Below are positions 25,237 through 50,123 of a stretch of DNA of 64,000 bases, piece by piece. The translations under genes and the position numbers were made by a program. Source of the DNA: Fibrobacteria bacterium (GTDB lineage: Bacteria; Fibrobacterota; Fibrobacteria; UBA11236). Every line of letters starts with the position of its first letter. Position 1 is the first letter of the stretch. The DNA lies in NCBI GenBank assembly GCA_041746255.1, contig JBGTHM010000115.1, positions 32,001-96,000 of the forward strand, read 5' to 3'. The notes under the pieces are model-generated. The model did no database searches and was not told the origin of the DNA. It was given only the letters and a program-made list of their open reading frames with translations.

Positions 25237-25764
25237 ATGCTAACGAATAAACCGAATAAATTGACCCACCGCAAAGTCTGGTCGCCTGCGGAGCTGGCCC
25301 TGCTGCAACGCCAGGATCCCAAGGCTTTCCTGCTCGCGAAGTCCCATGCCAAATTAACCCGGCCCTCGCAGGCCCCGTCCCTGCTTTTAGCCCATGAGAA
25401 AAAGCTGAAGGTCAAGCGCACCAGTCTAAAACCCTTTTTAATGCCGGTTTTGGGAACCGTAGCCCTGGCCCTGGGAGTTTGGCTATGGCCTACCAATGAA
25501 AATGCCGCTTTGGCCCCGGCTGCCGCAAGCAAGGTGACTCCGCTTTCCGAACCGGCCGTGGAATTGAGCCCCAATCAACAAGCCTTATATTGGACTTACG
25601 CTCTCTACGACTTCGACAGACTCAAAGAGGATTTCCGGGTTCCCGCGCACACGATAGTCGACCATACCCATGCCTCCGCGGCGCTGCAGGCGCTGATGCC
25701 GTCCATCGATCGTCCGACCCGATACATAATCGACCGGTACATACCCCAGGGCAGGAAAATATGA
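25237..25764 (+). CDS. Bitopic membrane protein of unknown family, pilin-cluster accessory (copy 1)
   Basis: Basic N-terminus, one TM, Pro-rich linker, 'LSPNQQALYWTYALYD'. ATGA overlap with the PilV-like gene. Paralog at 28845. Confidence 0.75.
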   Translation: MLTNKPNKLTHRKVWSPAELALLQRQDPKAFLLAKSHAKLTRPSQAPSLLLAHEKKLKVKRTSLKPFLMPVLGTVALALGVWLWPTNENAALAPAAASKVTPLSEPAVELSPNQQALYWTYALYDFDRLKEDFRVPAHTIVDHTHASAALQALMPSIDRPTRYIIDRYIPQGRKI

Positions 25765-26147
25765 TAAGGCCGCAAGCCGGATTTTCCATGTTGGAAGTGT
25801 TGGTCTCCATGGTCATCGTGGGGATATTGGCCTCGTCGCTTTTCTACTTCCTTTCCGCCCAGAACAAAATGGGAATTATGACCACCGATATGACCAACGG
25901 ACTGAATTTCGGCAAGCAGGCCATGGACTCCCTCAAAGTACTGGACTATTCCGAAATAGCCGCCGGATCGGACATCATTCAGGAACGCTATATCCGGAGC
26001 TGGACCATCACCACGGTGAGCGATGACATGGGAGTGCCGATGGGACGTAAGCGCATCGATGTCAACGTTTTCTGGCCGCTCACAGCCGATCACGGAGTTT
26101 CCATGGTAACCCTGTTAAGCGACGATGAGTTCAAGGAGAATCAATGA
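25761..26147 (+). CDS. Type IV minor pilin, PilV-like (copy 1)
   Basis: Class III signal QAG|FSMLEVLVSMVI with E5. Ends 'KRIDVNVFW'. Confidence 0.85.
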   Translation: MIRPQAGFSMLEVLVSMVIVGILASSLFYFLSAQNKMGIMTTDMTNGLNFGKQAMDSLKVLDYSEIAAGSDIIQERYIRSWTITTVSDDMGVPMGRKRIDVNVFWPLTADHGVSMVTLLSDDEFKENQ

Positions 26148-26902
26148 ATACCGGGGGCAAAAGAGCGGATAGGGGTTTCACCCTGGTGGAAATCCTGATC
26201 GGCATGCTGATCAGTTCCGTCGTCCTCACCGGGCTCTACCGAATGTGGCTCAGCAGCAGCGAGCAAAGCGTACAGCTTCGCCAGAAAATCGAAGTGCGCA
26301 ATCAAATCACCCTGGCGAGCAAAAACCTGCAATCGGCCATAACCCTGGCGGGTTTCGGCATGCAGGGTGTAAAGAATATCGAGAAATTCGACGGTGTGGG
26401 AACCGACACCCTGCTGATTTTTTCCAACAAAAGCAGTCATCAAACTGCTTTGGGCGTGAGTTATTGGTCCGGGCAAGATCATTTCAATGTTTCGGATCCC
26501 TCCATTTTTTCCGGCGCGGCCTATATCGCGATAAAAGATGACGCGGGCGGCGAAATCCGTAAAATCACCTGGAAAAATTCCAACAATATCGGCGTGGAAG
26601 AAGCCATCGGCCGTAATTTCGATATGGATAACAGCATCGTCATGCCGATCTTCCTCGACAAATACTATACCGATCAAACCCATCAGAAACTGATGGCGGT
26701 TTCCAATGGCGCGGGCCGCATCATAGGCCACAACCTTACCAATTTCCAGGTGGCTTTCAAGGATAAGGACGGCGTTTCCACTTCGATTGTCAATGATATC
26801 CGTTCCGTCACTTTTTCGTTTACGGGAGTCTTTTCGGCCAAGGAAGGCGCAATCAGCAATATCAACTTCACTACTACGGCCATCCCACGGAATCTGATCT
26901 AA
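26144..26902 (+). CDS. Type IV minor pilin, PilW-like
   Basis: RG|FTLVEILIGM, 'ITLAGF', C-terminal 'TTAIPRNL'. Confidence 0.85.
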   Translation: MNTGGKRADRGFTLVEILIGMLISSVVLTGLYRMWLSSSEQSVQLRQKIEVRNQITLASKNLQSAITLAGFGMQGVKNIEKFDGVGTDTLLIFSNKSSHQTALGVSYWSGQDHFNVSDPSIFSGAAYIAIKDDAGGEIRKITWKNSNNIGVEEAIGRNFDMDNSIVMPIFLDKYYTDQTHQKLMAVSNGAGRIIGHNLTNFQVAFKDKDGVSTSIVNDIRSVTFSFTGVFSAKEGAISNINFTTTAIPRNLI

Positions 26903-26968: not shown

Positions 26969-27853
26969 ATGAAAAATATGAAGTCATTCATCACCACCAT
27001 CCAAGATCATGTGAAAAAAGGCATTTCTCCCGGGGAACGGGGAGCCGGGTTGCTTTCGGTAGTGACGGGCATGGGCGTCGTCGCCGCCATGGTACAAGGT
27101 TCCTTGTATTACCAGGCCAAAACCAGCAATGACTTCATCGCCGGCGAAGCCCATAAAACCTTGGCCCGCGAAATGGCCGAGGCCGGCATCGAAGCCAATA
27201 TCGCCGATATCGGGCTGGGAAACCTGACCATTACCGCCAACATGAACGGACATCCCTCTTACCGGAATGAACCGCTCGGCTCGGGAACCTATAGCACCGA
27301 CCTCTATGCCGTAAGCACCTCCGAATCCACCGATACGGTGGATGTGAAATCCACCGGACAATTCCGGGGAGGGGCTCATTCCATCTTCGCCCGGCTCAAG
27401 GTCAACAAATATCTGGACACGGTAAAAGTGGTGGATGCCGTTACGGTTCTGGTGCCAAGAGAAGTGACCACGACAACTTCCGTTCCCACCACGGTAACCA
27501 CCACGACGCAACTGTCGCCGGGCGACATGCCGGCCTTGGACCAGCAGCCCGCCTATGACGCCTGCATGGCTTCCGGAAACGTGCAATGCCAAATATGCCA
27601 CTTGCCGCTTGGAAATGTAGACAACCGAAGAGTTGTCGATGTCGCACGGCCGTCGGTTAAAACCCATATCGATCATCATGGAGATTATATCTCCACCGAC
27701 GGAACCTGTGACATGTACGATCCGGTGGAAACCATTACGACCACCTATGTTGAGGTTACGGAAACGGTAACCGTCATGGATGAAGTGATTACCGAAGCCG
27801 AAATCGAACAGATTCAAGAGCGTGCGCGCGTCCAGGTGCTATCCTGGAAATAA
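26969..27853 (+). CDS. PilX-like minor pilin with Thr-rich stalk and CxxCH/His-containing inserted domain (copy 1)
   Basis: ERG|AGLLSVV (no E5), MAEAGIE, VKSTG, C-terminal 'LSWK'. CQICH at 27587-27601. GGAGG precedes ATG 26969. Confidence 0.8.
   Translation: MKNMKSFITTIQDHVKKGISPGERGAGLLSVVTGMGVVAAMVQGSLYYQAKTSNDFIAGEAHKTLAREMAEAGIEANIADIGLGNLTITANMNGHPSYRNEPLGSGTYSTDLYAVSTSESTDTVDVKSTGQFRGGAHSIFARLKVNKYLDTVKVVDAVTVLVPREVTTTTSVPTTVTTTTQLSPGDMPALDQQPAYDACMASGNVQCQICHLPLGNVDNRRVVDVARPSVKTHIDHHGDYISTDGTCDMYDPVETITTTYVEVTETVTVMDEVITEAEIEQIQERARVQVLSWK
27167..27213 (+). repeat. 47-bp perfect direct repeat, second copy at 28074-28120
   Basis: cgcgaaatggccgaggccggcatcgaagccaatatcgccgatatcgg is identical in both PilX-like genes. 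Confidence 0.85.
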
Positions 27854-27875
27854 CCAGAAAGCGAAGAGGGGAATT

Positions 27876-28760
27876 ATGGAAAAGCTGAACTCATTCATTG
27901 CCCGTCTTGGATTTCGGCGCCGCACCCCGCGGCTGTCCGGAGAGTCGGGGGCCGGCTTGCTGTCGGTGGTTACCGGTATGGGGGTGGTGGCTGCCATGGT
28001 TCAGGGTTCCCTCTATTACCAGGCTAAAACCAGCCATGCCTTCATTGCCGGCGAGGCCAATAAAACCTTGGCTCGCGAAATGGCCGAGGCCGGCATCGAA
28101 GCCAATATCGCCGATATCGGAATCGGGTCGCTTTCCATTACTCCGAATATGGCCGGATACGCCACCTATCAAAATGAACCCCTTGGGGGCGGGGGGTTTA
28201 CCACTCTGCTTACCACGGTGGGTACTTCGGAAATCGCGGATACCGTCGATTTGAGTTCCACGGGGATGTTTCGAGGTGGAACCCACTCCATTTTCGCTCG
28301 CCTACGTGTGGGCAAGTATATCGATACCTCGGTGGTAATCAATATGAATACGGTGATTACGCCTCGGGATTCGGCATTTACCGAATTGGTACCGTCCGTC
28401 GTTACTACAACCACCCAAATGGACCCACATGACATGCCCCCACTTTCAGAGCAGCCTGCCTATGATGCCTGTATGGCTTCCGCCGCAGTTCAATGTCAAA
28501 TTTGCCATCTTCCCCCAGGAAATGTGGAGAATCGTCAAGTTATCGACGTCGCTAAGCCTTCTATCCGTACCCATATAGACCACCACGGGGATTATGTAAC
28601 TACGGACGGCTCATGCGATATGTATGACCCGGTGGAAACGACGACAACCATCTACAATACGGTAACCGGTACGGTAACGGTAATGGATACGACCTCCATT
28701 TTTGAAGAGGATTTGACGATTAGCGAACGGTCCCGCGTCAAAATCCTTTCCTGGAAATAA
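27876..28760 (+). CDS. PilX-like minor pilin with Thr-rich stalk and CxxCH/His-containing inserted domain (copy 2)
   Basis: ESG|AGLLSVV, MAEAGIE, CQICHLPPGN at 28494, HIDHHGDY, C-terminal 'LSWK'. Colinear paralog of 26969. Confidence 0.8.
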   Translation: MEKLNSFIARLGFRRRTPRLSGESGAGLLSVVTGMGVVAAMVQGSLYYQAKTSHAFIAGEANKTLAREMAEAGIEANIADIGIGSLSITPNMAGYATYQNEPLGGGGFTTLLTTVGTSEIADTVDLSSTGMFRGGTHSIFARLRVGKYIDTSVVINMNTVITPRDSAFTELVPSVVTTTTQMDPHDMPPLSEQPAYDACMASAAVQCQICHLPPGNVENRQVIDVAKPSIRTHIDHHGDYVTTDGSCDMYDPVETTTTIYNTVTGTVTVMDTTSIFEEDLTISERSRVKILSWK

Positions 28761-28844
28761 GGCGGCGGCCGGAAAAGGAGAATTGCATTTTCCCCGGGCC
28801 GCCCATATAATCGGAGCAGACCCTATCCGGCATGGAAAGCCTTG

Positions 28845-29303
28845 ATGAAACCGACGGCGATACATAAAAAAGAGGAGCTGCTGGTCAAAATGCGGGGCCG
28901 TTTGGCCCGGCCCATGGCGCCCTCTCCTCCCAATGGAAAATCCCTTAAACGCAGAAAAGCCAAGGGTTCTTGGTTCTGGCCCATAACCGTTTTCGTCGCC
29001 CTCGTGCTGATCAGCGGCTTATGGGTCGGAAAGGACCTCCAGGGAAATACCGCTCCGGCCGCCCCGTCCCCCATCTCTCCCTTGCCCTCTCCCCCTCCGG
29101 AACTTTCGGTCAATGACCAGGCTTTTTATTGGGCTTATGCCCTTTATGATATGGAAAAATTCAGGGAAACTTTTGGCGCCCAAAGCCTGGTAGCCGTCAA
29201 CTCGCACCAGGCCAAGGAAAATTTGAAAACCCTGCTTCCGCAAACCACCGATCGCGTTCGCTATTTAATCGGGCGTTATCTTCCGCCAGGGGGACTACCT
29301 TGA
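28845..29303 (+). CDS. Bitopic membrane protein of unknown family, pilin-cluster accessory (copy 2)
   Basis: 'LSVNDQAFYWAYALYD' and 'RYLIGRYLP' match the 25237 product. Stop overlaps the TTG start of the next gene. Confidence 0.75.
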   Translation: MKPTAIHKKEELLVKMRGRLARPMAPSPPNGKSLKRRKAKGSWFWPITVFVALVLISGLWVGKDLQGNTAPAAPSPISPLPSPPPELSVNDQAFYWAYALYDMEKFRETFGAQSLVAVNSHQAKENLKTLLPQTTDRVRYLIGRYLPPGGLP

Positions 29304-29686
29304 CAAGAAATCAGGCCGGATTCAGCATGCTGGAAATCCTGGTATCCATCGTGGTTTTCAGTTTGATGTCCACTTCCATTTTTTATTTCCTGTCCACGCA
29401 AAACAAATTCAGCGCCAATAGCAACGACATGACGCGAGGGATCAGTTTGGGCAAACTGACCATGGATTCGCTGAAGGTGGTCGATTATGACGCGCTTACC
29501 GCGGGTTCAGATACGGTTGGGGAAAGGTTTATCCGCACTTGGAGCGTTTCGCCCCAAACCAACGAGGATAATACCCCGAAAGGCCGGAAATTACTGCAAG
29601 TGGTGGTCTTTTGGCCGCTGACGGCGGAACAAACCATGAGTTTTACCACCTTGGTAGGCGATGACGAATACAAGGAGGACCGCTAA
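29300..29686 (+). CDS. Type IV minor pilin, PilV-like (copy 2)
   Basis: QAG|FSMLEILVSI. Shares MDSLKV, AGSD, GRK, FWPLTA and DDE with copy 1. Confidence 0.85.
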   Translation: MTRNQAGFSMLEILVSIVVFSLMSTSIFYFLSTQNKFSANSNDMTRGISLGKLTMDSLKVVDYDALTAGSDTVGERFIRTWSVSPQTNEDNTPKGRKLLQVVVFWPLTAEQTMSFTTLVGDDEYKEDR

Positions 29687-30180
29687 CGGAGGATTTTCAA
29701 ATCGCTGACCCAGACGGTACGATTGCCATCGGTGGTTATCGACAAGGTATAATCCCCGTCTGATAGGAATTCCACCCGGTACCAGCTACCTTGGCCTATC
29801 AAATCATCATCGGAAGTCGGCATTTGCAGGAGATCGCCCGTCACATCCCGATAGCCGATTTTAAATATACCCACCGGAACTTTAAAGTTTTTCGACTGAT
29901 TTGCAGGGATGGATCCTAAGGTTTTGAACACCGGCGCGCCATGGATGTTTTGCACGTTTGCGGAGAAAAGCAGGAAAGTAAGCTCTCCCGGGTCTTGAGT
30001 CTTTTGATTGAGGATTTTCAAATTCGCTTCCTGAGTTCCGGCGGGCGGAGCGGGACTTTTGGATTCATCAATCTCGATGGCATCGCATCCGCACAGCGCG
30101 AAAACCAAGCATAACGGGAAAAACCAATTTATCAGGCGCTGCGAAGCCAAGTTTTTCGGAGCGAAGAATTTTATGGACAT
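29683..30180 (-). CDS. Hypothetical lipoprotein (beta-sandwich-like)
   Basis: Lipobox LCG-C. AGGAG precedes the ATG. Confidence 0.7.
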   Translation of the reverse strand: MSIKFFAPKNLASQRLINWFFPLCLVFALCGCDAIEIDESKSPAPPAGTQEANLKILNQKTQDPGELTFLLFSANVQNIHGAPVFKTLGSIPANQSKNFKVPVGIFKIGYRDVTGDLLQMPTSDDDLIGQGSWYRVEFLSDGDYTLSITTDGNRTVWVSDLKILR

Positions 30181-31362: not shown

Positions 31363-31581
31363 GAAATCCTCCTGGAGTTGGGAATACCGTGCGAACGCTA
31401 GATATCTTAGGTAAATTAGTAATCTTGAAACCACCTCTATTTCGGGAAAGCTTACAGCTCTCTCGATTTATGGGAAGCGATGAATTATATTCCTGGAGGA
31501 GTTTCAACCACCGCCCTCAAGTCGGGTCATGAACCCGTAACGGTTTAATTGCAACTAAACATTAATGGGAAAAAATCCGTT

Positions 31582-32766
31582 ATGACGCTTCGCTCCGGAA
31601 CTAATCTATCGTTCGCTTGGGTGCTCTTGGCTCTTCTGGTTTCGGCCGGCGCCAAGGAAAAATTCGAGGAAAGGGATTTTTCCGGTCAAGGTTTTACCGG
31701 CCGCGATTTAAGCGGAATGGTATTCAAAGATTGCAATTTGGAAAACGCCCGCTTTAACCAGGCCATGGGTAATAAAATATCCTTCGAGGGCTCCAAAGGA
31801 TCCAAGATCAATTTCAATAGCGCACATTTCGGCCAAAGCTCGTTCCGCAACGTCGAATTCGGAGACGGCGAATTCCGGGGCGCCGATATCCGGGAAAGCG
31901 ATTTCAAAAACGCAGCGTTGCCTCGGGCTGATTTTCAGAGAGCGGTTTTGGCGGGTTCCAATTTCGGCGGCGCCGATCTCAAGGCCGCCAATTTCATCGG
32001 CGCTAAATTCGTCGAGAAGGCGCGCTTCAACAAAGCCGATTTGGCCGGCGCCCGGTTCGGAGACAGCGGGCTGGAAAGGGTCGATTTTTCCGGCGCCAAT
32101 CTCGACGGCGTCAACCTTGTAGGCGCCAAGTTGCAAAATTCGGATTTCCGTTTGGCAAGCGTCAACTCCATCCAGCTGAAAGGCGCGAACCTTTCCGGGA
32201 CGGACATGCGCAAACTGGCATTCCACAATGCTGATCTTTCCGGCAGTAATCTGGTGGAAGCCGATTTCAGGCGTGCCACATTTGAGAAATGCAAATTCGA
32301 TGGAGCGGAATTCGGGTTTGCGAAAATGGCCTCCACCCGCTTTACCGAATGCACTTTCGTTCGAGCCGCGTTTTTCAATACGCAAATGAAGGGCGCCGAT
32401 TTTTTCGCCGCGAATCTGGAGGAAGCCATCTTCGGTGGTAAGAGCTTGGACAAAGTCCAATTTCTGGATGCGCGTATGGACAGAGCCAAATTCCAGGTGG
32501 GAAAGCTCAGTAATATCGATTTTTCCGGGTCCAGTCTGCGCAATGTCGACTTCACCGGCGTCAGGCTTATCAATTGCAATTTCACCAATGCCGATTTGAC
32601 CGGGGCGATTTTTTCGGCGGCGTTTCTCACGGGTTGCGATTTCCGGGACGCCAACTTAAGCCAAGCCCAATGGGAGCCGGAAAACCTGCAAAAAAACCTG
32701 TATAACTCTTCCACACGTTTCCCCAGCGGATATACGCCCCATCCCAAGCAGATGCGGGCCCGATAA
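31582..32766 (+). CDS. Secreted pentapeptide-repeat protein
   Basis: Signal-peptide-like N-terminus followed by continuous A(D/N)(L/F)xx repeats. Confidence 0.9.
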   Translation: MTLRSGTNLSFAWVLLALLVSAGAKEKFEERDFSGQGFTGRDLSGMVFKDCNLENARFNQAMGNKISFEGSKGSKINFNSAHFGQSSFRNVEFGDGEFRGADIRESDFKNAALPRADFQRAVLAGSNFGGADLKAANFIGAKFVEKARFNKADLAGARFGDSGLERVDFSGANLDGVNLVGAKLQNSDFRLASVNSIQLKGANLSGTDMRKLAFHNADLSGSNLVEADFRRATFEKCKFDGAEFGFAKMASTRFTECTFVRAAFFNTQMKGADFFAANLEEAIFGGKSLDKVQFLDARMDRAKFQVGKLSNIDFSGSSLRNVDFTGVRLINCNFTNADLTGAIFSAAFLTGCDFRDANLSQAQWEPENLQKNLYNSSTRFPSGYTPHPKQMRAR

Positions 32767-44949: not shown

Positions 44950-46476
44950 TCAGATCTTTTCCAGCATCCCCAGATTCAGCTTGGAAAAACTTTTGCCGTC
45001 ATAGGTTATTTGCACCGCCATTTCGCTATTTCCGTCCACTTCCACGGTTTCCAGGTGGACCGGGCGGTCCCACAAATATTGGATTTGCCGCATTACCTGG
45101 CGGGAACTGTCTTCGTCCAACGACATCCCTTCATAATAATGCTTGAGGTAAAGCTCACTTTTTCCGCCATAATCGCCGTCTTCCACCTTAATCAAGGGGA
45201 TGCCGGAATGGGCGAAGGAGCGGACAATGGTGTCTTTAATCGACCTCCAATCGGTTTCCTCCACCACAAACTCCTCCACATTGCCCCGGTTCTTGGACTG
45301 GTAAATATACAGTTGGGCGTCTTCAACCACCTCTTTGTTCATGAACTCGTCCAGAAAAAACCAATCCATATGGGTCCGGCGCACTTCAAACACTTTTTCC
45401 AGGCCTTTGCCCACTTTGAGGTCGATGTCCCATTTGTCCGGCGATTCGTCGCGTTCCCATTCGGGCCCGAATTGTCCGGTGTTATAGCGTTTCTCGATAT
45501 TCAAAAAGGTTTTGATTCCCAATAAATACGGGTTCATCCCGAAGGGATTGCTGGCCAAGACCCGGGAATTGTACAGATTGTAAAAACCGTGCTCTTCCTC
45601 GCTTAAAAAACCGTCTTGAAAGAGACGGGACATGATGCGCATATGCCAGAAAGAGGCCCATCCCTCGTTCATCACCTTGGTTCGGCGTTGCGGCATGAAG
45701 TATCGGGATTGTTCCCGGATGACGCTGAGAATATCCAACTCCCACTCGTCGAATTTACGCGGGGAGTGGCGCATGACGAATTCCATCAAATCGGTTTGCG
45801 GTTCAGCGGGGATTTTCTTCTTGGCCTGTTTGATCTCCTGTCGCTTCTCCTCGAAGGTTTTTACGTTTTTCTGTTTCTCAAAATCGAACATGTCCCCGTA
45901 TTTTGCCGTTTTCTCTTTGGGACGAATCAGGGGTTCGGCCTTCTTCTCTTCGCGCGCCGACCTATCCGCGCCGAGAAAATCGGTGTCGACGTTCATCTGG
46001 ATGGACTGGGCGGCGTCGATAAGCTTTTCCACCTCGTTAATGCCGTAAGCTTCCTCGTATTTGCGCATACGGGAAGCCGATTCGCTGGCGGAAGTCACCA
46101 TATCCTTGCGGGTAGGAACGAAATGCACGTTGTTTTTCATGAAATCGTTATGGCCGTAAACATGCGCCATCACCAGGACCTGGATAGGATACGGATTGTT
46201 GCGCATCAAAAAGGCCCGGGAAGGGTTTGAGTTGAGCACCACTTCATAGGGAATGCCGCCGGAATATTCGTATTGCGTGCGCTGCTTTTCGAAATCGCGC
46301 CCGAAGGACCAATGGGAATAGTTGACGGGCAGATTATAGGACATGATTTCCAGCATTTTCTGGGCGGGAATCACGTCGAATTCCTGGGGATAGCAATCCA
46401 ACCCGTATTCGCTTACGATTTTCTGGATATGATTGTCCGCTCTCACGAGCCGCTTCAAGTCGTTTTTCATAGTCAC
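44950..46476 (-). CDS. spoVR: SpoVR/YcgB family protein
   Basis: HWSFG, YEVVLNSNP, AHVYGHNDF, TKVMNEGWASFWH, NPYLLG. Confidence 0.92.
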   Translation of the reverse strand: MTMKNDLKRLVRADNHIQKIVSEYGLDCYPQEFDVIPAQKMLEIMSYNLPVNYSHWSFGRDFEKQRTQYEYSGGIPYEVVLNSNPSRAFLMRNNPYPIQVLVMAHVYGHNDFMKNNVHFVPTRKDMVTSASESASRMRKYEEAYGINEVEKLIDAAQSIQMNVDTDFLGADRSAREEKKAEPLIRPKEKTAKYGDMFDFEKQKNVKTFEEKRQEIKQAKKKIPAEPQTDLMEFVMRHSPRKFDEWELDILSVIREQSRYFMPQRRTKVMNEGWASFWHMRIMSRLFQDGFLSEEEHGFYNLYNSRVLASNPFGMNPYLLGIKTFLNIEKRYNTGQFGPEWERDESPDKWDIDLKVGKGLEKVFEVRRTHMDWFFLDEFMNKEVVEDAQLYIYQSKNRGNVEEFVVEETDWRSIKDTIVRSFAHSGIPLIKVEDGDYGGKSELYLKHYYEGMSLDEDSSRQVMRQIQYLWDRPVHLETVEVDGNSEMAVQITYDGKSFSKLNLGMLEKI

Positions 46477-46503
46477 CTATCCCCATCCCATGATGGGATT
46501 ATT

Positions 46504-47865
46504 CTAATGCTTTTTCTCTCTTGAGAAAAAAACTTTGAGCGCCGGATAGACATGGGTTTTATTCTTGACCACCACTCCCGCCAAGGGCAGGTCTTGCCGC
46601 TGCGCCAGATAATATTCGAAATCGGAATCGCGATACGAAGTATACCGTTCCAGATTGAAGGTTTCTTCGAAACTTTTCATCAATTGTTGGCCATAGGCGA
46701 CCTCGGTACGGATTTCTCCATAGCCCAGCATATTGACCCTTTTTTCCAATAGCTTGCGGGCCGCATGCATGGTTTTGCCCGGATCCCAATCCTCGCCGTC
46801 GGAGAAATGGAAAGCGTAAATATTCCAATGACTGGGCGGGTATTCGTTGTCTATGAGCTGCGTGGCCATTTCATAGGCCGAAGCGCAAACCGTACCGCCG
46901 GATTCGCCTTTATGAAAGAACTCGTCTTCGTCCACCAGCTTGGCTTCGGAGGTGTGCGCGATGAAACGGATTTCCACCTTCCGGTATTTATGCTTCAAAA
47001 ATTGAACCATCCAGAAGAAAAAACTGCGGGCCAAATACTTTTTGGTGGTGGACATCGAACCCGATACGTCCATCATGGCCAGGATCACGGCATTGCTTTG
47101 GGTTTCCACATCCTCTTTGAGAACGCGGAAGCGCAAATCGTTTTTATTGATGAAGGGCTTCAGCTGGTCGGATTCCTCCGCCAGCTCCGATTCGTCTTGC
47201 AGTTTTCTGAGAAGTTCCAATGCCTTGATATAATCGCCACGCATCTTATTCAGGGCCTTGGTGCACAAATCAACCGGCTTTCCGCTTTCCTGCACCAATT
47301 GCGCGAGGGTTCCGGAACTTTTTTTAATGGCCTCGCGTACCGTTCTTTTCTTGTCGAGATTCGCTTTGATGCCGGTACGTTCGATGTTCTCGAAATTCCA
47401 TCCGGAGGGAACCAGGGTTTCCGCGATGTCTTTGCGGCGTAAATCGGGAAGCTGCAAATCGTCGAGCATCATGGAAATCAGTTCTTCGATATCCACCTCG
47501 GTTTCGAGATAATCGCTACCGGGGCCTTCGCCCGCCTTGCCGCCTTTTCCGGGCCCCTGTCCTTCTCCCTGTCCGGGAATGGGCCGCCTTCCGATTACGT
47601 CGCCTTTGCCTTGTTTCCCATGCCCGAGACCGTATTGTCCCCCGCCCTCGCCGGATCCTTTGCGGCGGCCATATTTGAATTCATAGGATTTGACCCCGCG
47701 GATGGGAATCTTGACGGTTTGGCCTTTGCGCTTCGTGATGATGGATTCTTCCGAAATCACATCCGCGATATTTTCGCGTATGCTTTCGCGGACTTTGCCC
47801 TGATGCCTGGCGACATCCTCCTGTCCGCGTTTCGAAAAGTCCCAGTCCACTTCCCTGACGGTCAT
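46504..47865 (-). CDS. yeaH: YeaH/YhbH (DUF444) vWA-domain protein
   Basis: Gly-rich linker, MMDVSGSM, FIAH, ESGGT, WNIYAFHFSDG. Confidence 0.9.
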   Translation of the reverse strand: MTVREVDWDFSKRGQEDVARHQGKVRESIRENIADVISEESIITKRKGQTVKIPIRGVKSYEFKYGRRKGSGEGGGQYGLGHGKQGKGDVIGRRPIPGQGEGQGPGKGGKAGEGPGSDYLETEVDIEELISMMLDDLQLPDLRRKDIAETLVPSGWNFENIERTGIKANLDKKRTVREAIKKSSGTLAQLVQESGKPVDLCTKALNKMRGDYIKALELLRKLQDESELAEESDQLKPFINKNDLRFRVLKEDVETQSNAVILAMMDVSGSMSTTKKYLARSFFFWMVQFLKHKYRKVEIRFIAHTSEAKLVDEDEFFHKGESGGTVCASAYEMATQLIDNEYPPSHWNIYAFHFSDGEDWDPGKTMHAARKLLEKRVNMLGYGEIRTEVAYGQQLMKSFEETFNLERYTSYRDSDFEYYLAQRQDLPLAGVVVKNKTHVYPALKVFFSREKKH

Positions 47866-47912
47866 GCTATCGCCTCCCGGAGCGTTCGCGCCTTGACGCG
47901 AACGCCTTTAAC

Positions 47913-49889
47913 CTATTCTTCTTTGCGCAGCACTTCGCCCACGTATTGCAGCAATTGCTCGGCGTTCCGCTCCGAATAACCCTTCGATTTAAGCGCGTCG
48001 ATGGCGTCTTGCCGCCGCTTCATGGCCTTGGGATCCTTTTTGTTGGGATCGGCTATGGTCAAGCTCACCACGTTTTTCAAATCGGCCATCAGCTTGCGTT
48101 CGATGGCTTCGTGCAGCGGCTGGTAAGATTTGAAATCGAAATCCTTGCCTTGATCCAAAGCATCCGATTTGAAAACGAAAATCCCCTGACGGAATTCCCG
48201 CTTGGCGTTGTCGGAGACGCCTATCATCTCTTCGATGCTGCGCAGCAGTTTTTCGTCGGGCTCGTGTTCTTCGCCGGTAACCGGATCGGTGATTTTCTTC
48301 TTGAGGCAATACGACGTGGTGTTCTTGATGTAATTGTCGAACAAGGCCTGCGCCTGGTCCTCGTAGGCGAAAAGGAAGGCCCGATTGACCTCCTTCTTGG
48401 CGATTTCGCGATACTCCGCGTTCACGCTGCCCTTATCGGCCATAAGCAGACGCAGATAACGTTCTTCCTCCTCTTCGGAAAATCCGATATGGTGGCCGAA
48501 ATTGTGGCGCATGGCCCTGAGCAAATCGAGCGGGTTGATGCTGCCGTCCTTTTCCTTTTCGGACAGGGCGACGTTAATGGCGTTGACCACGAAACGGGGT
48601 GAAATTCCCGACATGCCTTCGCCTTTTTTCTTGCCTTCGAGGCGCAGCGACTTCAAGTCCACCGGGTCTTTTTCCTGCTCCATCACGGACTCGCCATTGT
48701 AATACTTCATCTTTTTGATGAGGTCGGGGCAGAGATTCGATTCGACCAGCCGGGTCAGCACCGCGAACATGGCGGCCACTTCCAAAGTATAAGGGGCGAT
48801 ATCCATATGCGAGAATTGCGAACTGGCAATCATCTTCTTATAGATTTTCACTTCGTCTTCTACCCGCAGGCAATACGGAACGTAAATGGGATACATGCGG
48901 TCGTGCAAGGCTTCGTTTTCCTTGTTCGACTTGAACTTTTCGAATTCGGTCTGGTTGGTATGCGATAGAATGACCACGTCCGTATAGATTTGCGGAAAGC
49001 CGGGAGCCTTGATTAATTGCTCTTGCGCCACCGTGATGAGCACATAATGGAATTTGATGTCGCATTTCAGGATTTCGATGTATTCAATCAGACCGCGGTT
49101 GCTGATTTCCAATTCGCCGTCGAGATTATAGGCGCGCGGATCGGTCTCTCCGAATTCGGTGATCTTGGAAAAATCGACATGGCCTATCAATTCGGAGATG
49201 TCCTGATTCTTGGGATCGCTGGGCTGGAAGGTGCCTATGCCCCGGCGGGCGCGCTCGGAAAGCGTGATTTGTTTGACCTTGTACTTCTCCCAGAGCACAT
49301 TGCCCTTCTCGTCGCGGTATTCCGGAGTGTTGATGAGACGGTAACGGCAAATGGGGCACAAGTCGCCGTCGATTTTGGTTTTGAGAACCTCTTCCCATTT
49401 GGGACGGTCGGACCGGGGAATCAGATGCAGGGGATCCTCGTTCATCGGGCAGCCGTCGATGGCATACATGGGAAGCTTGGCGCTGAATTCTTCCAGGCGG
49501 CGTTTGAGCAGGGAGGCGATGGAGGATTTTCCGGAGGAAACCGGACCGACCAGGATGAGGATGCGCTTTCCGGTTTCCGTGCGTCGTGCGCCGGCATGGA
49601 AAAACTTTACGATATCGTGGATGGATTCCTCTTCACCGAAAATCTGGCCGTCGAAGAATTTGTAGCGGACCAAATCTTCATATCCGGGAAGTTCATTTCG
49701 TGTGGAAGGTGGTTCGGTGCCTTCCGAAATAATCATGTCATAGATGCGGGAAGGCGCGGACATGGCCAATCCCGGCTTCGCTTGCACAAGCTGGAGGTAA
49801 TCCAGACAGGTGCCCTGCCAGGAACTGGCTGATTTTTTCGACCTCGAGCTATCGATTATGGATTGAAAATCTTCGTTTTTATCCGACAT
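47913..49889 (-). CDS. yeaG: PrkA/YeaG AAA+ serine kinase
   Basis: GPVSSGKS, CPMNEDPL, GIGTFQPSDPKNQDISEL, SNRGL, NEALHDR, GISPRF. GGAGGGG RBS. Confidence 0.93.
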   Translation of the reverse strand: MSDKNEDFQSIIDSSRSKKSASSWQGTCLDYLQLVQAKPGLAMSAPSRIYDMIISEGTEPPSTRNELPGYEDLVRYKFFDGQIFGEEESIHDIVKFFHAGARRTETGKRILILVGPVSSGKSSIASLLKRRLEEFSAKLPMYAIDGCPMNEDPLHLIPRSDRPKWEEVLKTKIDGDLCPICRYRLINTPEYRDEKGNVLWEKYKVKQITLSERARRGIGTFQPSDPKNQDISELIGHVDFSKITEFGETDPRAYNLDGELEISNRGLIEYIEILKCDIKFHYVLITVAQEQLIKAPGFPQIYTDVVILSHTNQTEFEKFKSNKENEALHDRMYPIYVPYCLRVEDEVKIYKKMIASSQFSHMDIAPYTLEVAAMFAVLTRLVESNLCPDLIKKMKYYNGESVMEQEKDPVDLKSLRLEGKKKGEGMSGISPRFVVNAINVALSEKEKDGSINPLDLLRAMRHNFGHHIGFSEEEEERYLRLLMADKGSVNAEYREIAKKEVNRAFLFAYEDQAQALFDNYIKNTTSYCLKKKITDPVTGEEHEPDEKLLRSIEEMIGVSDNAKREFRQGIFVFKSDALDQGKDFDFKSYQPLHEAIERKLMADLKNVVSLTIADPNKKDPKAMKRRQDAIDALKSKGYSERNAEQLLQYVGEVLRKEE

Positions 49890-50123
49890 ATTATGTCTCC
49901 CCTCCCCTGATTGCATCTACGCCTGGTCTGGACGGCACCGGATTGCTCCGGGCGGAAATGCCGTCTTTCCCGATTTATGCCTGCGAGTCCTATCCGTTCA
50001 TATGATATACCACGCAAGCACTCGAATTCATCCTTTGTGTTATTTGAACCCAAGAAAAAATCCGGTAATTTTTCTAGCTTCACCCTCTAAAATATCAAAT
50101 TTGGAACCTGGAGGACAGAGCTT

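Follow-up and report, generated by a model that had tools for sequence, protein, structure and literature searches.

Introduction

Pilins of the PilK class need a final beta-strand, which, according to PMC13533445, is either contributed in trans by PilC/PilY1 or provided in cis, as in GspK and CpaL. The same paper describes CpaL, the tip protein of the Caulobacter Tad pilus, as an N-terminal pilin-like domain followed by a large middle insert, after which the extreme C terminus adds a strand to the pilin sheet (PMC13533445). In the modular type IV pilins, namely PilB (vWA) and PilC (lectin) of Streptococcus sanguinis, CofB of enterotoxigenic Escherichia coli and ComZ of Thermus, a module is grafted onto a pilin for display at the tip, and PMC8179133 states that many such modules have no database signatures. 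Here we describe XA and XB, two tandem genes at positions 26,969 to 28,760 of a 64,000-nucleotide stretch of DNA from a Fibrobacteria bacterium (contig JBGTHM010000115.1, positions 32,001 to 96,000; hereafter the window). We favour, with moderate confidence, a reading in which both products are cap minor pilins that carry a beta-ribbon stalk and a disulfide-stapled knob, the knob probably binding a metal or another ligand and holding no heme.

Like GspK/XcpX and PilX/PilK, the X proteins (XA, XB and their relatives) lack Glu5 and are encoded third, after I- and J-type pilins. Their predicted pilin fold aligns with that of GspK/XcpX from alpha1 to the C-terminal strand and likewise has a big insert inside it, and the terminal strand would be provided in cis, as reported for GspK (PMC13533445). 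They differ from GspK in that the insert is a predicted beta-ribbon stalk with a small disulfide/His knob rather than the GspK insert domain, and from the GspK/PilX systems in that a conserved fourth gene, U, precedes the set and an H-type pilin is not part of the cassette. The likeness to CpaL, whose middle region comprises ~470 residues of other domains, is one of described topology only (PMC13533445). In contrast to the modular pilins of PMC8179133, in which a short linker joins the module to the pilin, X has its module ahead of the last strand, at the end of a long hairpin that looks rigid. As for a modular pilin, whose module also occurs outside pilins, the knob module is found in hundreds of non-pilin proteins.

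Results

XA and XB as Candidate Cap Pilins

Both open reading frames are real and lie on the plus strand, with likely starts at ATG 26969 for XA (GGAGG upstream) and ATG 27876 for XB (GAGGGG upstream), and the end at 28760 given by an earlier first-pass annotation of the window is correct. The two proteins are 66% identical (196/298) in a gap-free alignment. They have the PilX-type N terminus that this annotation had described, with cleavage at ERG/AG and ESG/AGLLSVV (the slash marks the site), Ser instead of Glu at +5 and AEAGIE in both; its SWK ending is present as LSWK, and the two Thr/Val-rich runs that it placed on either side of a four-Cys, His-rich insert are found in both sequences. 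Family-wide, Gly25 at -1 is invariant, position +5 is Ser, Thr or Gly and never Glu, a hydrophobic stretch follows, and AEAG.E is invariant. The recurrence of these features in orthologs from 16 related loci indicates that they are not due to chance.

Identity between XA and XB is highest in the N-terminal helix (93%, 55/59), followed by the knob (77%, 50/65), the descending arm (56%, 20/36) and the ascending arm (50%, 20/40). The knob is thus better conserved than the stalk arms, as had been claimed, although "far more conserved" was generous and the helix exceeds both. Third codon positions are 73% shared in codons 61-90 (27149-27238 in XA, 28056-28145 in XB) and 20-53% shared elsewhere, which may reflect gene conversion or a strong constraint on alpha1.

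No Pfam or NCBIfam family, including T2SSK, PilX_N and gspK, matched XA or XB at E <= 0.1. An AlphaFold2 model of the whole protein, built on a 15-sequence alignment, has a mean predicted local distance difference test (pLDDT) score of 82.9 and shows a long helix (25-83) followed by a small four-stranded sheet (93-132 region). We compared this model with 48,161 PDB representative chains using VIA-align. The top match was GspK (3ci0_K; Z 10.1, root-mean-square deviation (rmsd) 3.3, 97 aligned), and others included S. sanguinis PilA (7o5y_B, Z 9.7), ComZ (6qvi_A, Z 8.4) and XcpX (5vtm_X; Z 8.0, rmsd 2.5, 86 aligned), all modest values for a predicted model and near the common range of the tool (typical best Z 7-8). 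Foldseek returned nothing for the whole model at E <= 0.001. The gene order V-W-X, which corresponds to I-J-K, is found in the window and across the 16 related loci, some of which are truncated at contig ends. Fold and gene order, together with the missing Glu5, support a role of XA and XB like that of the GspK/PilX cap minor pilins, in keeping with the PilX-like reading of the first-pass annotation; because the scores are modest and the sequence families silent, we say that they work like these proteins and do not claim family membership. A predicted V+W+X complex scored 0.81, 0.82 and 0.81 against 0.64 for a control in which W was replaced, and gave no verdict.

The last strand of X, VQVLSWK, is the best-conserved stretch of the protein (majority fraction 0.85), with L291 and W293 invariant. 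In the AlphaFold2 model, strand 253-293 ends by returning in cis to the pilin sheet. From this topology we infer that X gives the last strand of its own sheet and that a PilY1-type adhesin may not be required, which would explain the absence of a PilY1 gene: none is present among the 56 open reading frames of the window that were scanned for families, as the first-pass annotation had remarked. A genome-wide search with PF05567 (PilY1) also gave no match, but its control matched in no genome and the search is uninformative. As the insert precedes the terminal strand, it would be placed where a tip adhesin would otherwise be.

A Widespread Module in the Knob

The knob motif proposed earlier, which runs from YDAC through CxxCH and GN to HIDHHGDY and a closing Cys, is present as claimed, except that 16 residues, not 15, separate GN from HIDHH. 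In XA, the Cys residues are 199, 207, 210 and 247 and the His residues 211, 233, 236 and 237. The earlier statement that a small ICHxPPGN...HGD...C module without the upstream Cys occurs in various surface proteins was well founded: a profile search of 1.84 billion representative proteins yielded 1,358 matches at E <= 0.001. Among the 150 matches listed, about a dozen are full-length relatives and most cover only profile positions ~194-238; in these matches the module often stands in 2-13 tandem copies (range 1-13), in proteins of up to 2,896 residues. The consensus of 373 copies is K[VI]T[IV]-C-H-[IV]-P-P-G-N-P-x-N-x-x-T-I-x-[IV]-x3-A-x2-A-H-L-x-H-G-D-x-L-G-x-C, with C25, H26 and H48 conserved at 99% and D54 at 95%. 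Proteins that carry the module also contain SprB, Big_9, cadherin-like, DUF4114, DUF5666 and DUF4215 domains, a type IX secretion system sorting tail and a weak, sub-threshold match to an LPXTG anchor. A crude heuristic found a signal-peptide-like start in 82 of 124 carriers, and these starts point to an extracellular setting for the module. Its carriers are secreted and cell-surface proteins from many different phyla.

A model of the knob only, made from 24 sequences of the window and the related loci, is confident (pLDDT 92.8, predicted template modelling score 0.78) and comprises a helix (17-24), two strands (29-34 and 44-49) and a second helix (50-56), the last three forming a beta-beta-alpha module. 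VIA-align found 10 of the 48,161 PDB chains at Z >= 2 (best 2.6), the best Foldseek hit had an E of 2.9, and a search of PDB sequences with two profiles gave best E values of 0.24 and 0.51, both for unrelated proteins. Pfam/NCBIfam scans of 28, 35 and 20 carriers placed no family on the module, the ESM Atlas gave no usable lead for the knob, and literature searches with the motif strings of the module and with Fibrobacter minor pilins returned nothing on this module.

The near-invariant His and Asp residues, with H-x3-H on a helix, suggest a metal or ligand site. It is possible, if unlikely, that the same architecture bears a metal-free knob, a plain disulfide-stabilised adhesin head whose His and Asp have a structural role or themselves touch a ligand. 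Disulfides alone often hold extracellular mini-domains together, and the X protein of locus L017 has F, F and V in place of H233, H236 and H237, yet keeps the fold-defining Cys, G-D-Y and a PPGN-type turn; in addition, 10 of 47 knobs have V, I, Q, T, P or R instead of the second His of the HH pair. However, over the 373 copies in unrelated proteins H26, H48 and D54 are conserved on a par with the Cys pair, and two copies that have lost both Cys retain all His and Asp residues. H-x3-H on a helix that follows a beta-hairpin is moreover a classic metal-binding spacing, which we also count against a metal-free knob.

A Predicted Beta-Ribbon Stalk

In the AlphaFold2 model, strands 135-180 and 253-293 form one long hairpin (block pLDDT 75-95, arms 75-90). 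To compare arm lengths we used anchor-to-anchor spans, each consisting of a stalk arm and the adjoining part of the knob; anchors were placed in 29 of 37 distinct homologs, the regular expressions having missed the other eight. In these 29 full-length homologs the spans are 56-59 and 51-55 residues, exactly 58 and 53 in 21 of them, and they keep to these lengths despite only ~50% conservation of the arms. In shorter relatives the two arms shrink together, in six length classes (40/50, 25/33, 26/37, 30/38, 15/24 and 8/19), with a correlation of r = 0.996 (n = 11 sequences, two of them near-identical). The modelled strands and the concerted arm lengths bear out the long knob-bearing hairpin of the first-pass annotation, and the stalk would be an antiparallel beta-ribbon of two strands; with ~30 residues free in each arm, it would measure ~10 nm at ~3.3 Å per residue. 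Bovine antibodies with an ultralong third heavy-chain complementarity-determining region likewise bind through a small disulfide-bonded knob that sits on a two-stranded beta-ribbon stalk. The comparison is one of analogy only, without homology; the X stalk has about twice as many residues and belongs to an unrelated family and organism.

It is improbable that the Thr/Val-rich runs join those of a second protein (XA with XB, several X) or W in a wider sheet or barrel, or that the ribbon is a modelling artefact. Such pairing is suggested by the best whole-model Foldseek rows, which are oligomers built from long hairpins (phi29 and Andhra tails, MspA, the lysenin pore) with weak scores (E of at least 0.016), and by the tandem duplication of X in the window and in 5 of the 16 related loci, while the alignment of only 15 sequences leaves room for an artefact. 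In contrast, in 11 of the 16 loci each cassette encodes just one X with a knob, which shows that XA-XB pairing is not general, and an obligate pairing of the two was set aside on these grounds. The concerted shortening of the arms fits intramolecular pairing, and the arm pLDDT speaks against an artefact.

Cysteine Pairs and the Question of Heme

All four Cys are present in 42 of 45 family knobs (two generic copies that the knob filter also admitted were left out of this count), and both C199 and C207 are lost in the remaining three (F/A, F/A and W/A); a single loss occurs in none (0/45). A further relative, P0015, provides a fourth double loss of the YDAC Cys and the first Cys of CxxCH. Generic module copies retain both core Cys in 287 of 291 cases; two are the copies lacking both that were mentioned above, and in the other two the closing Cys lies one residue past the scoring window. 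Exactly two Cys are found in 313 of 327 module cores. Because the members of each pair are kept or lost together, C199-C207 and C210-C247 are supported as two independent pairs, most simply disulfides in an exported protein, which the first-pass annotation had named as its fallback. The conserved CxxCH would then be a by-product of two overlapping disulfide pairs.

The same annotation had taken CxxCH as a possible site for a c-type heme, and hence for a redox centre with which the pilus tip would transfer electrons, sense redox state or contact minerals, a proposal that fares badly and that we consider very unlikely. The motif is present in XA, XB and the 42 four-Cys knobs, and the extra His could act as a distal ligand. 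The genome has two matches to PF01578 (CcsA-like) and one to ResB (PF05140), the latter beside one of the former on contig C76, and a System II cytochrome c maturation pathway is thus probably present; CcmE was not found in the source genome. The earlier suggestion to look for a maturation system was answered in that respect, but it does not discriminate for or against heme, and the argument against heme therefore comes from the covariation of the cysteines and not from missing machinery. The first Cys of CxxCH is gone in the three knobs and in P0015, always together with the YDAC Cys, as expected of a disulfide pair; a first Cys that is not conserved among orthologs was one of the findings that the first-pass annotation had itself named as refuting its proposal. 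The position of this Cys is Val (51%) or Ile (30%; 81% together) in the 373 generic copies, whereas the Cys of C-H is kept or lost with the closing Cys. In addition, Pfam gave no cytochrome family match, the confident knob model has no solved match (best Z 2.6, Foldseek E of at least 2.9, by which a cytochrome fold is not excluded), and adhesin-like proteins can have as many as 13 copies of the module in tandem.

Hardly credible is a derived His-Me (HNH-like) beta-beta-alpha finger that binds or cuts nucleic acid at the tip, for example in DNA uptake: the knob model has beta-beta-alpha topology, its pattern resembles colicin-type HNH proteins (His ending strand 1, a turn Asn, H-x3-H on the helix) and competence-pilus tip pilins bind DNA, but the likeness was not borne out by hhalign of the knob against 11 PF01844-type regions from related genomes (probability 0.9%; one subtype, small alignments), Pfam scans of 35 short carriers gave no HNH family at E <= 5, and tandem arrays of as many as 13 modules in adhesin-like proteins look non-enzymatic.

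The U-V-W-X Cassette and Its Distribution

XA and XB belong to a tight run of plus-strand genes, U1-V1-W-XA-XB-U2-V2 (Table 1). The U-V-W-X unit is kept across the 16 related loci in 1-3 tandem cassettes, some of these loci being cut by contig ends (L012 is without its first U, and L017 has X only). V1 matches N_methyl (PF07963, E 1.5e-07) and TIGR02532; W matches N_methyl (E 3.7e-08) and, weakly, a prepilin-peptidase-dependent protein family and HpsC. U is a predicted single-pass membrane protein that also starts the cassettes of related loci, and Pfam, NCBIfam and the ESM Atlas gave no match or usable lead for U1.

Table 1. Features of the X cassette region, in window coordinates (a slash in a motif marks the cleavage site)
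Feature	Position	Strand	Description
U1	25237..25764	+	Opens the cassette; 175 residues, one predicted membrane helix, no family matched
V1	25761..26147	+	GspI/PilV-type minor pilin; 128 residues, G/FSMLE (Glu at +5)
W	26144..26902	+	GspJ/PilW-type minor pilin; 252 residues, G/FTLVE (Glu at +5)
XA	26969..27853	+	Candidate GspK/PilX-class cap minor pilin with stalk-and-knob insert; 294 residues
XA ascending stalk arm	27407..27526	+	Residues 147-186; Thr/Val-rich (T12 V9 of 40); AlphaFold2 strand 135-180
XA knob	27527..27721	+	Residues 187-251; family-specific helix and predicted beta-beta-alpha C-H/PPGN/H-x3-H-G-D/C module
XA descending stalk arm	27722..27829	+	Residues 252-287; AlphaFold2 strand 253-293
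XA terminal beta-strand	27830..27850	+	Residues 288-294, VQVLSWK; rejoins the pilin sheet in the AlphaFold2 model
XB	27876..28760	+	Paralog of XA, collinear with it; 294 residues
XB ascending stalk arm	28314..28433	+	
XB knob	28434..28628	+	
XB descending stalk arm	28629..28736	+	
XB last strand	28737..28757	+	
U2	28842..29303	+	Paralog of U1; begins a second, truncated cassette
V2	29300..29686	+	Paralog of V1; 128 residues, Glu at +5, N_methyl PF07963, E 1.7e-06
Lipoprotein gene	29683..30180	-	Predicted lipoprotein, convergent with the cassette, beside V2 and then alr; 165 residues, no family match

U1 and U2 are 39% identical, and V1 and V2 52% identical in alignment. The second cassette (28842-29686) is truncated: U2-V2 is followed directly by the convergent lipoprotein gene, without W or X. 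The tandem XA/XB pair may be the remnant of two cassettes. An ortholog of the lipoprotein gene sits between X and alr in 13 of the 16 related loci, the other three stopping at contig edges.

Only 15 relatives turned up when 5.8 billion proteins were searched through a word index. Scanning one genome per species gave 18 loci, of which 16 encode family members and two (Planctomycetaceae and Bacteriovoracaceae) have only the knob core in common with X. Fourteen of the 16 are labelled as Fibrobacteria, Fibrobacterota or Fibrobacteres metagenome-assembled genomes, one as "uncultured bacterium" and one (L003) as "uncultured Bifidobacteriales". The last is the closest relative and has cmoA and cmoB upstream as well as the whole cassette in common with the window, at 50-70% identity; in all likelihood this contig comes from Fibrobacterota and was mis-binned or mislabelled. 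In a phylum sample of 201 genomes, full-length X matches were confined to the window's own family, where they occur in 12 of 21 other genomes (11 of 20 without genome G194). The 78 genomes of family f3 gave no full-length match, and in families f14 and f15 the match is limited to the N-terminal pilin part. The source genome, 100% complete by markers, contains these two X genes only.

Sister cassettes encode X variants of ~400-650 residues (L008:6506-8017, L011:4529-6031, L012:880-2826, L014:4787-6010 and L015:6504-8033), which have the same N-terminal pilin part, another large insert and one generic C-H/PPGN/H..HG module near the C terminus. It follows that the module is a payload which recurs among these pilins. 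The sister-type insert has weak DUF4394/DUF6923-like matches in the relatives P0032 and P0039.

Five other groups of prepilin-like genes are present in the genome, on contigs C7, C28, C32, C34 and C122; that on C28 is a three-gene prepilin-like set, and C34 has a 132-residue major-pilin-like gene. Three loci, on C7, C122 and C123, combine a secretin with an ATPase, and C88 has a PilB/PilT-like pair. Elsewhere in the window, a PrkA/DUF444/SpoVR triad (44950-49916, minus strand) and a 405-residue pentapeptide-repeat protein (31549-32766) are ordinary.

Discussion

We propose that XA and XB, products of a U-V-W-X cassette specific to their lineage, would cap a type IV filament. In this cassette V and W, judging from fold homology and gene order, would act as PilI/PilJ-type partners. 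Between the body of the pilin sheet and its last strand, the insert would form a beta-ribbon stalk ending in a 65-residue knob. The knob is envisaged as a family-specific helix followed by a module of ~40 residues, in which C-H ends strand 1, PPGN makes the turn, H-x3-H-G-D lies on and just after the helix and a Cys closes the unit. C210-C247 would be the staple of the module itself and C199-C207 an additional staple of the X family. The knob would replace the tip adhesin as a ligand-binding head held off the filament tip. His211, His233, His236/237 and Asp239 probably form a site for a divalent metal or another ligand, which is the least certain step of the proposed mechanism.

Several observations weigh against this picture. 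The sequence families are silent on XA and XB, the fold scores are modest, and the hairpin model is based on only 15 sequences; a lone ribbon of ~10 nm is also unusual and might need a partner. The putative metal or ligand site is interrupted by the three His substitutions of L017 and by those at the second His of the HH pair. Finally, more than one filament machine might use the cassette, the genome having nine T2SSE-ATPase matches, three secretins and one prepilin peptidase.

A broader proposal, which we put forward tentatively and regard as doubtful in its full extent, is that C-H/PPGN/H-x3-H-G-D/C represents an unrecognised extracellular beta-beta-alpha metal mini-domain (His3/Asp with one disulfide) that serves as a surface repeat in many phyla. 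The Fibrobacterota X proteins would mount a single copy of it on a ~10-nm ribbon at the very tip of a type IV filament, where it would stand in for PilY1 as a receptor that needs a metal to recognise its target, be that a mineral or metal, a polymer or DNA.

The analysis carries a caution for annotation, namely that a conserved CxxCH can come from two overlapping disulfides. The ~40-residue C-H/PPGN/HGD/C module is a candidate new domain family that is tractable for structure determination and metal analysis. For type IV filaments, the arrangement proposed here would represent a new design for diversifying the tip, in which the cap pilin has an adhesin-like head inserted directly ahead of its assembly-licensing strand, and a beta-ribbon of conserved length carries this head.

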